Positions 1 to 14,335 of a DNA stretch of 64,000 nucleotides are shown piece by piece. The stretch spans positions 11,971 to 75,970 of the forward strand of contig CAIKAR010000059.1 of NCBI GenBank assembly GCA_903825465.1. Reading direction: 5' to 3'. The translations under genes were made by a program, and so were the position numbers. The notes beneath the pieces were generated by a model that saw only the letters and a list, made by a program, of their open reading frames with translations, was not told the origin of the DNA and searched no databases. Origin of the DNA: an uncultured Hyphomicrobiales bacterium (GTDB taxonomy: Bacteria > Pseudomonadota > Alphaproteobacteria > Rhizobiales > Beijerinckiaceae). Each line of letters begins with the position of its first letter. The first letter of the stretch is position 1.

Positions 1-1
1 G

Positions 2-667
2 TATCCGGTGCCGGCCGAGTTCAACGACATGCGCACTCAGTTGAATTTCGTCGGGCTTCGTCACGACGTCGACGGCAAAATCTGGACGAAGGACGTCGGC
101 ACCAACAACGTGCTGCGCCTCGATATCGCCTCTCAGAAATGGGAGAAGTTCCGTCCGACCGACCAGTTGAAGGGGCCCGCGGGCATCTATCAGTTGATCT
201 CGGATTCGCGGAACAACGCGTGGCTCGCCGAATTCTCCGACGGCCATCTCGGCAAGATCGACGCGAAATCGGGCGAAACCAAGTGGTTCGACACGCCGGA
301 AGCGCACGCCCGCGCGCGGCGCATGGCGATCGACGAGAACGACAACATCCTGCTGACGCTGTATCGCGCCAACGCGGTGACCTACTTCGACACCAAGAAC
401 GAGAAATACACCGAATACAAGCTGCCGACCGCCTTCACCGCGCCCTACCGCGCGGCGACGGACAAAAACGGCGACATCTGGGTCAGCACCATGTCGACCG
501 ACCGCGCCGTCCGCCTCGACGCCAAGACCGGCAAGACGCGCGAATATCTGTTGCCGACCGAGACCAACATGCGCTCGGCTTTCGTCGACGACCGCGGCGA
601 CAAGCCGGTCTTCTGGGTCGGCTCGAACCATCAGGCCGCGCTGGTGAAAGTCGAGCCGCTGGATTGA
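2..667 (+). CDS. Vgb-like beta-propeller protein, 5'-partial; paralogue of 11390..13036
   Basis: Frame is open from the window edge. Repeated propeller motifs (GKIW, NAWLAEF, GDIWVS). C-terminus TNMRSAFVD..FWVGSNHQAALVKVEPLD matches the 11390..13036 product. Confidence 0.85.
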   Translation, partial: YPVPAEFNDMRTQLNFVGLRHDVDGKIWTKDVGTNNVLRLDIASQKWEKFRPTDQLKGPAGIYQLISDSRNNAWLAEFSDGHLGKIDAKSGETKWFDTPEAHARARRMAIDENDNILLTLYRANAVTYFDTKNEKYTEYKLPTAFTAPYRAATDKNGDIWVSTMSTDRAVRLDAKTGKTREYLLPTETNMRSAFVDDRGDKPVFWVGSNHQAALVKVEPLD

Positions 668-5378: not shown

Positions 5379-7073
5379 CTACTTGATCAACGCGACGTTC
5401 AAAATCGCCGACTTGCCCGCCTTGTTGGCGGCGAAGGCGTCCTTGAAGGCCTTGCGCAATTCCGCCGCGTTCGACGCCGTGGCGCCGAAGAAGCCGAACT
5501 CGTCGCCGAGCCGCTCGTAGCGCGGGCCGGAGATGTTGACGCCGAAGTGCGTTTTCGTCGTGTCGGCGACGCCGCCCTCGTAATAGAGCACGTGACCCTT
5601 GCGCATGGCCTCGTACTTCTGGTTGTTGCAGACGACGATCGTGATCGGAAGGTCGTAGGTTTTCGAGGCGCCGAAGGCCTGGATGATCGGGTTGTAGAGG
5701 AACGACCCGTCGCCGATGAAGATCACCACCTGCCGGTCGCGCGCGGCGAGCTTGGCGCCGAGCGCCGCGCCAATGCCCTGGCCCAGCGCGCCGCCGGTGA
5801 CGCGGAAGAAGCTTTGCGGCTCGTTCAGCGGCAGATGAGCGCGCATCTGGGGCATGTGGGTGATGGTCTCGTCGCAGACGAGGATGTCCTTCGGAAAAAC
5901 CTCCGCGGCGATCGAGGCCAGCGCGACGCAGTCGAGCGTGTCGGCCGCCGCCGCTTTCTCGCCCGCGGCTTTCAGGCCGGCGACGAGCTTGTCGTGCTCG
6001 GCGGTCCATTTGGCGCGGCGCGCCGAAACGACGCCCTGGTCCGCCGACGCGGACGCCTTCGCCAGCGCGCGCAACGCGTGCGCCACGTCGCCTTCGATGT
6101 AGTGGTCCGCGAACAGCACCTGATAGGCGAGGCTCATCTTCAGCGGGTTCTCGCCGATGGCGACGATCTTGCCCTTGCCGGGCCGGTTCGACGGCGGATA
6201 CCAGGGCGCCTTGCCGCTGACGAGCAGGATCAGGTCCGCGTCGTCGAGGAGGCCGAAGTTGGAAAATCCCATCCACATCGGATTGGATTTCGGGAAGTTC
6301 GTGTAAACGCTCGCGCGCCCGTTCACCACGGGGATGGCGAGGCTGTCGGCGAGTTCCACCAGCGCGTGGAACGCCTGGGGATCGCGGCCCGCGCCTTCGA
6401 CAACCACGACCGGGCTTTTCGCCGCCCGCAACAGCGCCGCGACGGTTTCGATATCCTGGGGCAACGCGGCGGTCTTCGGGGCCGGCGGCACCATCGGCAA
6501 ATCGCTCGGCTTCTTCCATTCGTGCAGCATGCATTCGAGGCCGACATTGATGTAAACCGGTCCCTGCGGCTGCCGCTGCGCGAGTTCCATCGACCGCGTC
6601 ACGGTGTGGTAGAGCGTCGGCGCGGAGGTCACCTGCGTCGCCCATTTCACGATCGGATCGACGAAGCGGTGCGCGCCGCCGACGCTGACGCCGCCATAGA
6701 ATTGCGGTTCGACGGGTTGGTCGGGGTCGTCGCCGAAGGTCGTCGCCTCGCCCGACATGACGAGCATCGGGATTTCCTGCTGCGCGGCCGAAACGACCGC
6801 CATGGAACCGTGCATGAGGCCCACGCCGGCGTGCAGGAGCACGGCTTGCGGCTTGCCGGTGTAAGCGGTGTAGCCGAGCGCCATGTCGACGGCGACGGTC
6901 TCGTGCCAGCAGTCGAGGAATTGCGGGCCGGCGTTCTTCTCGACGGTCTGGCGGGCCATCGCCTCCCAAACCGGGCTCCATTCCGAGCCGGGCGAGGACA
7001 TGATGTAGTCGACGCCGAGGTTGCGGAACGCCTCGAGAATCGCTTCGCCGCCGTCCTGATAATTCTTTTTCAT
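5379..7073 (-). CDS. Thiamine-diphosphate-dependent enzyme (acetolactate synthase / benzoylformate decarboxylase-like)
   Basis: SPGSE, WHE, LHAGVG, ThDP motif GDGSFLYN..NNQKY. Confidence 0.9.
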   Translation of the reverse strand: MKKNYQDGGEAILEAFRNLGVDYIMSSPGSEWSPVWEAMARQTVEKNAGPQFLDCWHETVAVDMALGYTAYTGKPQAVLLHAGVGLMHGSMAVVSAAQQEIPMLVMSGEATTFGDDPDQPVEPQFYGGVSVGGAHRFVDPIVKWATQVTSAPTLYHTVTRSMELAQRQPQGPVYINVGLECMLHEWKKPSDLPMVPPAPKTAALPQDIETVAALLRAAKSPVVVVEGAGRDPQAFHALVELADSLAIPVVNGRASVYTNFPKSNPMWMGFSNFGLLDDADLILLVSGKAPWYPPSNRPGKGKIVAIGENPLKMSLAYQVLFADHYIEGDVAHALRALAKASASADQGVVSARRAKWTAEHDKLVAGLKAAGEKAAAADTLDCVALASIAAEVFPKDILVCDETITHMPQMRAHLPLNEPQSFFRVTGGALGQGIGAALGAKLAARDRQVVIFIGDGSFLYNPIIQAFGASKTYDLPITIVVCNNQKYEAMRKGHVLYYEGGVADTTKTHFGVNISGPRYERLGDEFGFFGATASNAAELRKAFKDAFAANKAGKSAILNVALIK

Positions 7074-7780: not shown

Positions 7781-8881
7781 ATGCGCCTGTCCCGTCCCGC
7801 CGCCGGCCTGTTCGCCTGCCTCGCGCTGGCGCTCGGCTGCGCCGCCGCGCGGGCGGAAGGCCCGACCTTCAAGGTCGATCCGTTTTGGCCGAAGCCGCTG
7901 CCGAACAACTGGATTCTCGGCCAGGTGGCGAGCGTGACGGTGGACGCCATAGGCCACATCTGGATCAACCAGCGGCCAAATTCGCTGACCATCGACGAGA
8001 AGGGCGCGTTCACGACGCCCAAGACCTCGAAATGCTGCGTGCCAGCGCCCTCGATCATCGAGTTCGATCAGGAGGGCAACGTCGCGCAGGCCTGGGGCGG
8101 CCCGGGGCAGGGCTATGAATGGCCAAAGCAGGAGCATGGCATCCTGCTCGACAACAAGGACCGCGTCTGGCTCGCCGGCAACGGCGACAACGACGGGATG
8201 GTGTTGAACTTCACCCGCGACGGCAAGTTCATCAAGCAATGGGGCCACATGGGGCCGAACAACGGCTCGCTCGATCCAAAGCAGTTTGGACAGGTCGCCG
8301 ATTTCGCCATCGACGCCGACGCGAACGAAATCTACATGGCCGACGGCTATGGCAACCACCGCGTCATCGTGCTCGACATGGACACCGGCGCCCTCAAGCG
8401 CATGTGGGGCGCCTATGGCAAGCCGCCGACCGACAACAGGGTTGTCGGCTACAATCCCGACGATCCGCAGTTCGCCAACCCCGTGCATTGCGTGAAGATA
8501 GCCAACGACGGGCTGGTCTATGTCTGCGACCGCGTCAACAACCGCGTGCAGGTGTTCCACAAGGACGGCTCGTTCGTGAAGCAGTTCGTCTACCTGCCGG
8601 AGACCCGCAAATCGGGCTCGACATGGGACGTGGCGTTCTGGCCCGACAAGGACCAGAGCTATCTGATCATGGTCGACGGCACGAACAACGAGATGCGCGT
8701 GTTGCGCCGCTCGGACGGCGAGGTTCTCTCGACCTTCGGCCGCTCGGGCCGCATGGCGGGCGAGTTCCACTGGGTCCACACTGTCGCCGTGGACAAGGAC
8801 GGCAACGTCTACACGACGGAAGTCGACACGGGAAAACGCCTGCAAAAATGGACGCCGACGAATGGCGCGCCACAGCGGTAG
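7781..8881 (+). CDS. Exported NHL-repeat beta-propeller, peptidyl-alpha-hydroxyglycine alpha-amidating lyase (PAL)-like
   Basis: Signal peptide; FKVDPFWPKPLP, EHG, ADGYGNHRV, VHCV, DRVNNRVQVF, VHTVAVD. Confidence 0.82.
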   Translation: MRLSRPAAGLFACLALALGCAAARAEGPTFKVDPFWPKPLPNNWILGQVASVTVDAIGHIWINQRPNSLTIDEKGAFTTPKTSKCCVPAPSIIEFDQEGNVAQAWGGPGQGYEWPKQEHGILLDNKDRVWLAGNGDNDGMVLNFTRDGKFIKQWGHMGPNNGSLDPKQFGQVADFAIDADANEIYMADGYGNHRVIVLDMDTGALKRMWGAYGKPPTDNRVVGYNPDDPQFANPVHCVKIANDGLVYVCDRVNNRVQVFHKDGSFVKQFVYLPETRKSGSTWDVAFWPDKDQSYLIMVDGTNNEMRVLRRSDGEVLSTFGRSGRMAGEFHWVHTVAVDKDGNVYTTEVDTGKRLQKWTPTNGAPQR

Positions 8882-11340: not shown

Positions 11341-11376
11341 AAAAGAAGAAGCGCCGCCGACCCGCGTCGGCGGCGC
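11341..11376 (-). terminator. Intrinsic terminator after the CxxCH/Vgb gene
   Basis: 11-bp stem gcgccgccgac/gtcggcggcgc with 4-nt loop, followed by ttcttctttt on the minus strand. Confidence 0.7.
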
Positions 11377-11389
11377 CGCCGGGAGGTGT

Positions 11390-13036
11390 TCAGTCCTGCG
11401 GTTCGACCTTGACGATCGACGCGCCGTGGTTGGAGCCAACCCAGAAGGTCGGGATGGGCGTGGAGTTGTCGACGAAGACGCGGCGCATGTTGGTGTCGCG
11501 CGGCAGCGGGTATTCGACGGCGGCGCCGGTTTTCGGATCGAGGCGCACGACGCGGTCGGTGGTCATGCCGCCCGTCCACAGGTCGCCGTTCTTGTCCCAG
11601 ACGACGTCGTAGGGGCTGGTGAACTTCGTCGGCATCGGGAACTCGGTTGTCTTTTCCGTCGTGGTGTCGAGCATGCCGATGTTGTTGCCGCGGAATTCCG
11701 CGAACCAGAACCGCCCCTGCGCGTCCATGTGGCCGCGCCGGTTGCGCGCCACCGGCGTCGCGACCTGGTAGGTCTTGGTCGAGAAGTCCTTCGCGTCGAC
11801 GCGCATGATCGTGTTCGACTGGAAGTCGGTGAGGAAGAGGTTGTTCGAGGCGTCGGGCGCTATGTCGTAGAAGGAATGTTGCGCCTTGCCGCCGGGCAAC
11901 ACCGCGATCGGATTGAGATCCTCGTATTTTCCGGTGTTGACATCGAGACGCAGAATGCCTTGCGAGCCCGCGTCGTTTGTCCAGATTTTTCCGTCGAGAT
12001 CCTGATGCAGCGTCACCATGTTGAGCTGCGTGTCGTCCTTGTTGCGCTCGGCCGACACGGGGAAATAGGTGAACTGCTCGGTCTTCGGATCGAACTTGGC
12101 GAGGGCGGCCTGATACATCATGCCCACCCAAAGATTGCCGTCCTTGTCGGGGTTGATGTCGAGGTTGCCCGTCGGCCAGCCCGGCTTGAAAACCTTCATC
12201 TCGTATTCGGAGGGCTTGCCCGTCGTCATGTCGAGCTTGCCGAGGAACTGCTCGCCGAAGTTCGTGTAATAGACCGAGCCGTTGAACACGATCACGTCGT
12301 GCGGCTCGATGGTTTTGCGCGGCAGGTCGTATTCGGTGATGACGACATGCGTGCCCCGGCCCTTCACGCGCGGCATTGTCTTTAGTTCATAGTTCCACGT
12401 CGGGCTCTCGCTCAGGTTGATGGTGGCGAGGTAGTCGGCCATCTTGCGGAAGCGCTTCTCGGGATCCTCCGAGCGCGAGAACTCCTTGCGCGGCTGAGGC
12501 TTGATCGGCTGGCTCACCTGCGCGTAGCTCGACATGCGCGTCTGGATGGCGACGAAGCCGTCGGAATCGTAGGACGACCGCACGATGCGCTCGAGCGTAT
12601 GGCAGCTCACGCAGTTGATCATGTCGCGCTTCTGGTCGTCGGTGCCGGGAATGCTGGCCATCCACTCGGCGTTGGTGAGTTGTTTGGCGAGGTTCTTGGT
12701 CTTCTTGAGCTTCACGTCGTTGGTCGCCGCGGCGTCGGCGAGATCGAGCGACTTGGCGCTGTCGAGTTCCCAGCCCGCGGCGCGGATCGTGATCGCGTAT
12801 TTGCCCGGCGAGAGCTTGTCAGCGGGGAAGGCGTAATGGCCCTTGTCGTCGGAAATCACGCTGACGGTGATGTTGGAGCCGTCCTTGTGGGCGCTGACGA
12901 TGACGCCTTCCATCGCGCCCTCTTCGGCCGAGGAGACAACGCCGGTCAGGGCCGCGGCTTGCGCGGCGGCGAAGGGAAAACCAAACACCGCGAGCGCGGC
13001 GGCGCCGACGGTCGACAGCAATCTGTGCTTGCTCAT
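11390..13036 (-). CDS. Exported protein: carboxypeptidase-regulatory-like domain + CxxCH haem motif + Vgb-like beta-propeller
   Basis: Signal peptide ending AQA; TGVVSS..GAMEGVIVSA..TVSVISDDKGHY; CVSCH; propeller repeats GNLWVG, GKIWTN, GRFWF, GDLWTG. Confidence 0.85.
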   Translation of the reverse strand: MSKHRLLSTVGAAALAVFGFPFAAAQAAALTGVVSSAEEGAMEGVIVSAHKDGSNITVSVISDDKGHYAFPADKLSPGKYAITIRAAGWELDSAKSLDLADAAATNDVKLKKTKNLAKQLTNAEWMASIPGTDDQKRDMINCVSCHTLERIVRSSYDSDGFVAIQTRMSSYAQVSQPIKPQPRKEFSRSEDPEKRFRKMADYLATINLSESPTWNYELKTMPRVKGRGTHVVITEYDLPRKTIEPHDVIVFNGSVYYTNFGEQFLGKLDMTTGKPSEYEMKVFKPGWPTGNLDINPDKDGNLWVGMMYQAALAKFDPKTEQFTYFPVSAERNKDDTQLNMVTLHQDLDGKIWTNDAGSQGILRLDVNTGKYEDLNPIAVLPGGKAQHSFYDIAPDASNNLFLTDFQSNTIMRVDAKDFSTKTYQVATPVARNRRGHMDAQGRFWFAEFRGNNIGMLDTTTEKTTEFPMPTKFTSPYDVVWDKNGDLWTGGMTTDRVVRLDPKTGAAVEYPLPRDTNMRRVFVDNSTPIPTFWVGSNHGASIVKVEPQD

Positions 13037-13151
13037 TGTAACCTCCCAATGCCCAGGCGTTCGCCGCCAGCGGGTTCATTTCACAGGGGGAAGTTGCGCC
13101 CAACCCGGCGCGAACGCAAGCGGCCCGCCTCTTTCGCCGGGAGGACGCGGA

Positions 13152-14252
13152 CTAAAATTCCGTCGCGCCGACCAAATCGTCGAGCAGGTCGGCGCCGTCG
13201 AACGCGGGCGCGGCGGCTGTCTTCGCGGGCAGGTGGGAACGGCCCTCGAACACGCCCTTCAACGTGTAGTGCGCGAGCGGCATCGCGCCGGCGGCGCGCA
13301 CGTCCGGGTTCAGCGCGAGATAGGCCGCGGGGTTCCAGCCGGCGGGGCGCCAGCCGCGCTCGCGGGGCGGCGGCGCGTCGACGGCGTAGGGGCGAAAGCC
13401 GAGATAGCGCCGCCATTTGTCGCGGCCCTCGGCGCCCTCTTCGACGGCGCCGTAGTTGACGAACTCGACGCCCGCGACATGCGCGTCGGCGGAGTCCAGC
13501 AGCCATTTCATCAGATCGAACATCAACAGCTTCGTCACGCCGTCGCGGAGAGCCGCGCCGTGGCCCATGAAGAACACCACTTCGACCAGGTTGCCGGAGC
13601 GGCCGAGCGTCGCCTTGGCCACCATGCGCTCGGGCTCGGCGTTGTTGAAGACGCCAAAGTCGATCTGCCAGTGCTCGGCGCAGGGCGGCGGCGAGAAGGC
13701 GATGGCTTTGTTTTCGCGAGGCGCCGGCGATGTCTCGGCGGACCGCAAGGCGACGGCCACGACGCCGCCCGACCGGATCAGTTTGGAACCGATGATGTCG
13801 CGCAGCGAACCCGCGTGGGAGCCGACGCCGACGCGCCGGGTGGCGTATCCCAGTTTGCGCGCCCGCGCCGCCTCCCGGCGGTCGTTGCCGTCGGAAATCC
13901 GCGAGACCGCGCGCAGGTAGTCGTCGAAGGAATTGTAGTCGCCAAGCTCGATCATGGCGGCGAAAGGGCTGATCATGGCGCGCGGCGAAGCGGACCGGGC
14001 GTCGCGTGAGAACCCCCCCAGCCCCTCCCAGCGCGCGGAAACATGGCACGCGCATCGGGTGTCGTGGCAATGGCCGCGAAAACGGATCGGGGCGACAGGC
14101 GCGAGCGCGCCTTTAGCCAAGCCATTGCGACGCAGCCTACCCTTGTGCCGCAGCGTTTCAATCACCTTGAAAAACCGCGCGGCGCGCCAGACGGTTTCAA
14201 AAGTAGTCCAGTAAACGTTTGAAATGAAATCTAAAATGCCGACGCTTGCCAT
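13152..14252 (-). CDS. Hypothetical protein with a GNAT-like core and a C-terminal YLxxNPDV module
   Basis: FFMGHGAALRDGVTKLLM..YG..GRDKWRRYLGF; WNPAAYLALNPDVRAAGAMPLAHYTLKGVFEGR. Start uncertain. Confidence 0.6.
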   Translation of the reverse strand: MASVGILDFISNVYWTTFETVWRAARFFKVIETLRHKGRLRRNGLAKGALAPVAPIRFRGHCHDTRCACHVSARWEGLGGFSRDARSASPRAMISPFAAMIELGDYNSFDDYLRAVSRISDGNDRREAARARKLGYATRRVGVGSHAGSLRDIIGSKLIRSGGVVAVALRSAETSPAPRENKAIAFSPPPCAEHWQIDFGVFNNAEPERMVAKATLGRSGNLVEVVFFMGHGAALRDGVTKLLMFDLMKWLLDSADAHVAGVEFVNYGAVEEGAEGRDKWRRYLGFRPYAVDAPPPRERGWRPAGWNPAAYLALNPDVRAAGAMPLAHYTLKGVFEGRSHLPAKTAAAPAFDGADLLDDLVGATEF

Positions 14253-14319
14253 CAAAAACCCAACCCGAAACACAAGCCAACCTTTTCCGGGAAGCGGCTC
14301 GCAAGCCCGGAACGCACAC

Positions 14320-14335
14320 ATTACATAAATGTAAT
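14320..14335. promoter_or_regulatory. Perfect AT-rich inverted repeat, putative operator
   Basis: ATTACAT-aa-ATGTAAT about 70 bp upstream of the 13152..14252 gene. Confidence 0.4.

Follow-up and report, generated by a model that had tools for sequence, protein, structure and literature searches.

A haem-c/Vgb-type propeller protein of an uncultured Hyphomicrobiales bacterium, a putative periplasmic haem-relay oxidoreductase

The haem-c/propeller gene of the window (the whole analysed stretch of 64,000 nucleotides from an uncultured Hyphomicrobiales bacterium) encodes an exported protein, P0001, which we read, with a modest lean in favour of this view, as a periplasmic haem-relay oxidoreductase. 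P0001 is built of a signal peptide, a beta-sandwich, a haem-c module, and a Vgb-type propeller; no paper on this architecture was found in a literature search. The protein has thousands of full-length homologues, and its family ranks among the larger exported haemoprotein families still uncharacterised. A redox role of P0001 is supported indirectly, i.e., via the pairing of a sister subfamily with a small cytochrome c and via a haem module related to that of QHNDH.

Gene Structure and Domain Architecture

According to the ORF list and its translation, the gene is a complete ORF of 548 codons plus the stop codon at 11390–13036 (minus strand), exactly where the initial annotation had placed it. 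A ribosome-binding site, GGGAGG, can be read from the sequence 5 nt 5′ of the ATG (13042–13047, minus strand). At the other end, 13 nt 3′ of the stop codon, begins an intrinsic-terminator-like hairpin (11350–11377, minus strand), revealed by a terminator scan and the sequence itself and comprising 12 pairs (10 of them G-C) followed by TTCTTCTTTTC. The gene is monocistronic.

The signal peptide spotted in the initial annotation turned out to be of the Sec type. As read from the sequence, it comprises residues 1–27 (12956–13036, minus strand), runs MSKHR-LLSTVGAAALAVFGFPFAAAQA/AA with the predicted cleavage after AQA, and possesses neither a lipobox nor a twin-Arg motif. This region is variable in the homologue alignments and has a low pLDDT in the AF2 model.

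The mature protein starts with a CarboxypepD_reg-like beta-sandwich (residues 30–107; 12716–12949, minus strand), recognized by PF13620 CarboxypepD_reg with 37.5 bits (GA 32.3) and displaying, in the AF2 model, beta strands across residues 28–112 with a pLDDT of about 90 and above; the earlier description of a beta-sandwich-type N-domain therefore holds. It is followed by a helical haem-c module delineated by AF2 and profile matches (residues 112–232; 12341–12703, minus strand), which includes the conserved linker P222-R223-x-x-G226 and, modelled alone, reaches a pLDDT of 90.4.

The remainder of the chain (residues 231–548; 11393–12346, minus strand) forms a seven-bladed Vgb/NHL-type beta-propeller, as evidenced by Pfam, Foldseek, and a PDB profile search. 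The Pfam model PF24684 Vgb_lyase matches it with 92.6 bits (GA 50); the match of PF08450 SGL is marginal (30.0 bits, GA 26.3) and confined to residues 396–496. The AF2 model features seven blades of four strands each, and its best Foldseek matches are the Vgb structures 2qc5, 2z2n, and 2z2o, with a TM-score of 0.85–0.89 on the target at 20% identity. The profile of the distant homologue alignment retrieves Vgb from PDB at E 1.9e-39. The Vgb-like propeller repeats noticed initially are confirmed. The Pfam search revealed no transmembrane or signalling output domain in P0001.

The Haem Module

The single CVSCH motif pointed out in the initial annotation is a hallmark of the whole family. In P0001, this haem-attachment motif, C142-V-S-C145-H146, is located at residues 142–146 (12599–12613, minus strand), and C142 and C145 are the only Cys residues of the protein. 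Exactly one CxxCH is present in 166 of the 167 full-length homologues, and exactly two Cys residues follow the signal peptide in 145 of the 167. The motif is invariant in both homologue alignments, at identities down to 31%, as well as in the divergent homologues (55/55); its conservation, a check proposed along with the initial annotation, is thus established. A motif that is single-copy in nearly all homologues and invariant down to 31% identity is not a chance one. Covalent attachment of haem at this site is predicted from the sequence, and the genome encodes components of the Ccm system, i.e., CcmF (TIGR00353, 619.6 bits, cut-off 569) and CcmC (TIGR01191, 272 bits, cut-off 186).

By its conservation and fixed spacing, Met168 (12533–12535, minus strand) is a candidate for the sixth haem ligand. 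It is retained in 54 of the 55 divergent homologues, and a Met at the fixed +22 spacing after CxxCH occurs in 161 of the 166 motif-carrying homologues. This pattern suggests that M168 serves as the distal iron ligand.

The best PDB profile match of the haem module is the QHNDH alpha dihaem domain, at an E-value (0.05) below significance. At the same time, the HMM of the module matches, at E 1e-8, a small cytochrome from the same genome in both of its haem repeats; this dihaem protein is a member of PF09098, the quinohaemoprotein amine dehydrogenase haem-binding family (46.7 bits, GA 25.2); PF09098 yielded no Pfam match to P0001 itself. The module shares with QHNDH (1jju/1pby, 1jmx; alpha domain PF09098) the unit CxxCH-(~20 residues)-[R/K/D]M together with a C-terminal ‘YL’ helix. 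In the QHNDH enzyme, too, c-haem occurs together with beta-sandwich domains and a propeller subunit of seven blades. Still, P0001 harbors one haem unit instead of the two of QHNDH alpha, its propeller is a Vgb-type one on the same polypeptide, unlike that of QHNDH, its locus is devoid of adjoining qhp maturation genes, and there is no gamma subunit with cysteine tryptophylquinone.

Cytochrome cd1 nitrite reductase and the alcohol dehydrogenases of the PQQ quinohaemoprotein type are functional analogues of P0001: in these periplasmic proteins, a monohaem cytochrome c domain is fused to a catalytic propeller, and haem c carries electrons from the propeller site to soluble carriers or back. However, the propellers of these enzymes have eight blades and accommodate haem d1 or PQQ, whereas that of P0001 is seven-bladed and preceded by a cytochrome module which, unlike in these enzymes, sits between a beta-sandwich and the propeller. 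No cd1 or PQQ-propeller Pfam family matches P0001.

The Conserved Ring of the Propeller

A conserved ring composed of H246-D247, Y390, R433-R434, Y476, and R518 marks the beginnings of the inner strands in blades 1, 4, 5, 6, and 7. Its retention in the divergent homologues is high: 53/55 for R433 and R434, 51/55 for H246 and Y390, 50/55 for D247, 49/55 for Y476, and 47/55 for R518. The ring is mostly kept in all 15 paralogues of the same genome, with variation at the adjoining loop positions. It lies where the central channel opens, the position class in which the chemistry of Vgb and SGL-type propellers takes place. Since the ring is cationic, it should hold an anionic group, be it a carboxylate, another oxyanion, or the haem propionates. 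The His, Cys, and acidic residues of the ring are too few to build a Cu or Fe centre of the classical kind, and the propeller shows no evident redox cofactor.

Vgb (2z2n/2z2o/2z2p, 2qc5; PF24684) and P0001 have in common the seven-bladed fold, the repeat motif, and functional residues at the starts of inner strands. However, Vgb is a single-domain protein of ~300 aa without a signal peptide or haem, whereas P0001 (548 aa) carries a signal peptide, a beta-sandwich, and a haem module in front of its propeller; the Mg2+ site of Vgb is on blades 6–7, whereas the His-Asp/Tyr2/Arg3 ring of P0001 spans blades 1, 4, 5, 6, and 7. The catalytic residues of Vgb, reportedly described by Korczynska et al. 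in 2007, are H228, E268, H270, and E284 (the Mg2+ site plus the base). With the Vgb numbering checked against the 2z2n sequence, the collinear alignment places Y476 opposite H228, N516 opposite E268, and R518 opposite H270, and E284 falls opposite a gap (N536 by the motif register). The Vgb-catalytic columns read Y, N, and R across the haem-c/propeller family. The SNH motif, whose conservation was also proposed for checking, did not stand up as a family signature: it is invariant only in close relatives, and the divergent homologues keep N536 in 28 and H537 in 30 cases out of 55.

Family Distribution and Genomic Context

More than 6,700 non-redundant relatives of P0001 were found among 8,000 scored candidates, and ~520 of the clusters formed at 50% identity are matched with E <= 1e-30. 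The main hosts of the family are uncultured Xanthobacteraceae/Hyphomicrobiales, Acidobacteriota, Rokubacteria, and Burkholderiales from peat and forest soils. It is abundant in soil metagenomes yet patchy: within one genus, the copy number varies from 0 to 17 per species. The source genome (3.9 Mb) possesses ~15 family copies; 12 of the 25 genomes of the genus carry the family (1–17 copies each), and among 151 class-wide genomes it occurs only in the window's own genome. Such an all-or-many pattern within a single genus points to a niche-specific metabolic capability.

The gene neighbourhood was surveyed by calling and clustering ORFs in 84 loci of homologues. No conserved universal partner gene emerged across these loci, synteny being only clade-specific. 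The clade-specific neighbours include RecG or ParE-like genes upstream, a cobW-like GTPase gene together with znuABC, and genes for MFS, TonB-type OMP, and POT proteins. Small cytochromes adjoining members of the target's own subfamily are rare (2/84 loci), and next to the P0001 gene itself there is neither a cytochrome gene nor another conserved partner. As the gene is monocistronic and lacks a conserved partner, an electron-transfer partner has to be assumed. In the 611-aa sister subfamily, a gene for a small cytochrome c (PF13442) lies directly upstream in all 21 copies (13 genomes).

Proposed Function and Alternative Explanations

In the oxidoreductase reading, P0001 would be a Sec-exported three-domain periplasmic haemoprotein, in which the Ccm system would join one haem to C142/C145 after export. 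The axial ligands would be H146 and probably M168, giving a six-coordinate electron-transfer haem. The Vgb-fold propeller would bear an active site unlike that of Vgb, made up of the His-Asp pair (H246-D247), Tyr (Y390/Y476), and Arg (R433/R434/R518) residues. Oxidation or reduction of a substrate would take place at the propeller face, with the fused haem c exchanging single electrons with the pool of soluble cytochrome c. The chemistry of P0001 is what we infer from these features, and this holds for a catalytic role of the ring and for the direction of the electron flow as well. The ~15 old, divergent paralogues per genome, which keep the haem site and the ring and vary the loops, are as expected of a substrate-diversified enzyme set. 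The initial annotation had spoken of an undescribed periplasmic redox enzyme or sensor, and this suggestion gains support from the export, the conserved CxxCH and Met, the Ccm genes, the sister-subfamily cytochrome c, and the QHNDH-related haem module. Once found, the substrate and the interplay of the haem with the Vgb-type propeller would define a new periplasmic enzyme type, and the family could point to an electron source or sink so far overlooked in the turnover of soil carbon.

A bolder version of the same idea, which we consider tentative and rather doubtful, is that the family represents a new class of periplasmic haem-c oxidoreductases with an undescribed catalytic centre in a Vgb-type propeller. 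Such a centre might be cofactor-free, combining His-Asp/Tyr/Arg with the fused haem, or might rely on a Tyr-based or other unknown cofactor, and it would operate without PQQ, haem d1, or a classical metal cluster. In uncultured soil bacteria, the class would then have grown into sets of up to 17 substrate-diversified enzymes per genome, which would feed electrons from soil compounds to the respiratory chain.

The strongest competitor, albeit an unlikely one, is a non-redox propeller enzyme, i.e., a beta-elimination lyase or a lactonase/esterase acting on a carboxylate or ester compound, with haem c as a structural element or a redox- or gas-sensing regulator. The nearest solved relative is, after all, the C-O lyase Vgb, PF08450 SGL scores narrowly above its gathering threshold, the conserved residues are at the strand-start positions holding Y18, H228, and H270 in Vgb, and the propeller lacks an evident redox cofactor. 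Metal-independent beta-elimination lyases also use His/Tyr/Arg sites, and metal-independent lyases typically pair His and Tyr as base and acid and employ Arg residues as neutralisers. On the other hand, the Mg2+ and base residues of Vgb are missing from P0001, and no propeller residue is conserved more strictly than the haem site, be it among the ~15 paralogues or in several phyla. Moreover, every copy of the sister subfamily shares an operon with a gene for a soluble cytochrome c, a partner that a purely structural haem would not call for.

A periplasmic binding protein or electron carrier appears somewhat less probable still. Here, the propeller would offer a platform for ligand binding or docking, and the haem would reduce the bound ligand, e.g., a metal chelate such as a ferric siderophore delivered by a TonB-dependent receptor, or report the redox state. 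A lead in this direction comes from the pockets of ferric-catecholate binding proteins, which resemble the His/Tyr/tri-Arg pocket. The second-closest solved relatives of P0001 by sequence profile (E 1e-20 to 1e-11) are the ligand-sensing propellers of the Bacteroides hybrid two-component sensors BT4663 and BT4673 (4a2l, 3ott, 3v9f; Reg_prop). These, however, are extracytoplasmic ligand-binding tandem propellers without haem mounted on a membrane kinase, whereas P0001 is devoid of a transmembrane or signalling output domain. Acidobacteriota homologues often come after a gene for a TonB-dependent-type outer-membrane protein, and the copies of one alphaproteobacterial clade lie between cobW-like and znuABC genes, but both contexts are clade-specific and neither is present at most loci. 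The many old paralogues per genome suit enzymes and binding proteins alike.

We deem a PQQ-dependent quinohaemoprotein dehydrogenase, with the three Arg residues holding PQQ and the His-Asp pair acting as the base, very improbable. The layout of cytochrome c plus propeller and the Arg-rich pocket do recall quinohaemoproteins, and there is a very weak match to TIGR03606 (15.7 bits, cut-off 434). The PQQ cofactor is nevertheless disfavoured: none of the 25 genomes of the genus, 12 of which carry the family, was found to contain pqqC in a search whose positive control gave 321–333 bits in two genomes of the same order; no PqqA-like peptide was found, and none of the PQQ-propeller Pfam families recognizes P0001.

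A genuine streptogramin B (virginiamycin B) lyase is scarcely credible: PF24684 is above its gathering score and JGI names relatives ‘virginiamycin B lyase’ or ‘streptogramin lyase’, but the curated NCBIfam models for Vgb(A)/Vgb(B) reach 44.2–58.4 bits, ~1/10 of their cut-off (600), H228/E268/H270/E284 are replaced by Y476/N516/R518/gap, the identity to Vgb is 20%, and P0001 is exported, 250 residues longer, and predicted to bear haem.

Implications for Annotation

These findings agree with the initial suspicion that the protein is probably mis-annotated as virginiamycin B lyase: JGI does use this name, the catalytic residues are replaced, and the curated models remain far below their cut-off. 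Soil resistome surveys are inflated if haem-c/propeller proteins are counted as resistance genes. Thousands of soil-metagenome proteins carry the virginiamycin/streptogramin B lyase label, among them members of the haem-c/propeller family without the Vgb catalytic residues.

Domain Architecture and Gene Structure

The target gene (11390–13036, minus strand) encodes 548 residues and is preceded by the ribosome-binding site GGGAGG 5 nt before the ATG. The product starts with MSKHR, a hydrophobic stretch and AQA/AA, i.e., a Sec signal peptide with neither a lipobox nor a twin-arginine motif, followed by three domains: a beta-sandwich (residues 30–107; CarboxypepD_reg, above the Pfam gathering score), a helical module (approximately residues 120–230 in the AlphaFold2 model), and a propeller in the C-terminal half (Pfam Vgb_lyase, 92.6 bits; SGL marginal). 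The model (mean pLDDT 81, pTM 0.82) is least confident in the helical module, with the lowest pLDDT at the CxxC, and assembles the propeller from 27 strands and an N-terminal closing strand into seven four-stranded blades. In Foldseek, structures of virginiamycin B lyase (Vgb) ranked first (TM 0.85–0.89, normalised to Vgb; 20% identity), and the family profile matched Vgb structures at E 1.9e-39. Thus, the ORF, Pfam, AlphaFold2, and Foldseek bear out the initial annotation of an exported protein joining a beta-sandwich N-domain, a CVSCH motif, and a Vgb-type propeller; no paper describing this architecture was found in the literature searched.

The gene looks monocistronic, since 115 nt separate it from the end of the upstream gene, and a 12-bp, G+C-rich hairpin with a T-rich tail, starting 13 nt past the stop codon, precedes the downstream gene for an NMT1-like binding protein. 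The hypothetical protein encoded between recG and the target (13152–14321, minus strand) matches no Pfam family, lacks a signal peptide, and probably begins at an internal start codon; the nearest relatives of the target have a gene without Pfam hits in the matching position. The window also encodes a 366-aa NHL-repeat six-bladed propeller protein (7781–8881, plus strand) with two relatives elsewhere in the genome, both a few genes from paralogues of the 611-aa sister subfamily (609–617 aa, same three domains as the target); one of these relatives has a signal-peptide-like N-terminal start.

Haem Module

The CVSCH motif (residues 142–146) holds the only two cysteines of the target. C142, C145, and H146 are invariant in close homologues (60–88% identity) and in 33 cluster representatives (31–52% identity). 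Exactly one CxxCH occurs in 166 of the 167 full-length homologues, and exactly two cysteines follow the signal peptide in 145 of them. A methionine at fixed spacing after the motif (M168) is present in 161 of the 166 motif-bearing homologues and in 54/55 divergent sequences. The genome encodes CcmF and CcmC, both above curated cut-offs.

The best PDB matches of the haem-module profile, all sub-threshold, were c-type cytochromes, led by both haem units of the alpha subunit of quinohaemoprotein amine dehydrogenase (QHNDH). A dihaem protein of 166 aa encoded elsewhere in this genome, a member of PF09098 (the QHNDH haem-binding family), was also matched by the module HMM, in both of its repeats (E 1e-8). 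On the strength of these matches, the module is read as a divergent c-haem unit of the QHNDH-alpha type with putative haem attachment and His/Met ligation, single in the target, whereas QHNDH alpha has two.

Conserved Ring of the Propeller

The conserved positions of the propeller form a ring, predicted from the AlphaFold2 strand boundaries to start the innermost strands, i.e., the position class of Vgb Y18/H228/H270. Among 55 divergent homologues, it comprises H246-D247 in blade 1 (kept in 51 and 50, respectively), Y390 in blade 4 (51), R433-R434 in blade 5 (53 each), Y476 in blade 6 (49), and R518 in blade 7 (47); Y236, D438, D494, and R498 are also conserved in the family. Both CxxCH and SNH had been singled out earlier for a check of conservation: the former is invariant down to 31% identity, and roughly half of the divergent members retain the latter. 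Vgb uses polar residues in blades 6 and 7 to bind its substrate and Mg2+ (PMC8916777), whereas the residues conserved in the target family differ.

Cytochrome Partners of the Paralogues

The informative gene context comes from paralogues of the target. The four sister copies in the genome (C35:4008–6194, C17:22949–25151, C112:42331–44491, C30:322122–324284) each lie 13–43 nt after a small PF13442 cytochrome c gene, and such a gene is immediately upstream in 21/21 copies from 13 genomes of the genus (these four and 17 places in 12 other genomes). Across the sister pairs, divergence has brought the propeller proteins down to 47–65% identity and the cytochromes to 33–57%. Another paralogue, on C82, is downstream of two tandem pairs of a Tat-signal thiamine-diphosphate (TPP) enzyme and a small cytochrome c. 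At C82:10405–15060 and C17:125727–128126, each Tat-signal TPP enzyme is followed by a small cytochrome c (117–119 aa) or a PF09098 dihaem cytochrome, which is an unusual pairing for a periplasmic TPP enzyme; a related gene in the window (5379–7073, minus strand) lacks the Tat signal.

Putative Function

Judging from sequence, the target is most likely a periplasmic oxidoreductase, since the haem site and the ring are strictly co-conserved, the haem module is of the electron-carrier type, and the sister subfamily has an obligatory cytochrome c partner. The fused haem would serve as an electron relay linking the propeller site with soluble cytochromes. Being cationic, the His-Asp/Tyr2/Arg3 ring is expected to hold an anionic group; the residues around it differ among paralogues, as expected for different substrates.

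With the haem as an accessory, the protein would instead be a non-redox lyase or hydrolase, which we consider unlikely; a binding or electron-carrier role, e.g., for metal chelates, appears somewhat less probable again. A pocket rich in arginine and holding a His-Asp pair, beside a cytochrome c, is suggestive of a PQQ enzyme, but pqqC was not found in the gene search of this genome and 24 other species of the genus (matches at 321–333 bits in two same-order genomes served as the positive control), the species lacking it include 12 with 1–17 copies of the haem-propeller family, and a PqqA-like peptide was looked for and not found; hence, PQQ as the cofactor is very improbable. A true Vgb lyase can be practically dismissed, as the two curated models, for Vgb(A) and Vgb(B), give bit scores of 44 and 58 where the cut-off is 600 and, in the collinear alignment (2z2n residue positions), the catalytic H228, E268, H270, and E284 are replaced by Y476, N516, R518, and a gap, so the lyase label had rightly been suspected of being a mis-annotation.

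Gene Neighbourhoods

Across 84 loci, no universal neighbour gene was found. The nearest relatives of the target adjoin RecG and a hypothetical gene, a ParE/GyrB-like gene is clade-specific, and Acidobacteriota loci feature an MFS gene and a gene for an outer-membrane protein of the TonB type that itself carries a CarboxypepD_reg domain; tandem duplicates occur at 7 loci. About 10 loci of one alphaproteobacterial clade (L010, L011, L014, L015, L018, L022–L025, L027, L029) have the homologue flanked by a cobW-like GTPase and znuA-znuB-znuC, a placement that hints at zinc-limitation (Zur) control.

Distribution and Paralogues

More than 6,700 relatives were recognised among 8,000 scored candidates, and 14,762 representatives of the 50%-identity library match at E <= 1e-3 (521 at E <= 1e-30). 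Among species-representative genomes, the best 80 of 417 matches all fall in metagenome-assembled genomes recovered from peat, forest, and agricultural soils and assigned to Xanthobacteraceae/Hyphomicrobiales, Acidobacteriota, Rokubacteria, Burkholderiales, and other groups. The distribution is patchy: in an even class-wide sample of 151 genomes, the family occurs only in the genome of the window itself; 12/25 species of the genus have it, and complete genomes in the genus carry either none or many copies (up to 17).

The 3.9-Mb genome holds about 15 paralogues (contigs C32, C82, C56, C20, C67, C27, C89, C76, C30, C35, C17, C112, C132), thirteen with CxxCH at the same place, one with two motifs, and one divergent copy (C76:16218–17840, plus strand) with CFQSCH, i.e., CX3CH spacing. 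In the tree, they are old and scattered over clades shared with other genomes, and an Acidobacteriota clade is nested among the alphaproteobacterial ones. The 5' edge of the window (1–667, plus strand) falls inside a second paralogue (C59:10763–12637; CTSCH; 51% identical to the target), so two family members lie within 13 kb; a Rieske (LigXa-like) oxygenase gene precedes it outside the window. An exported 740-aa protein (C35:424–2646, plus strand) with a CarboxypepD_reg-like start, a CNTCH motif, and a C-terminal part without a Pfam match may pair this N-terminal cassette with a different type of enzyme. Homologues on contigs placed in a Saccharimonadales bin and a Verrucomicrobiia bin (L037 and L051) are near-identical to Acidobacteriota ones (branch lengths 0.01–0.02), which probably reflects binning errors rather than gene transfers.
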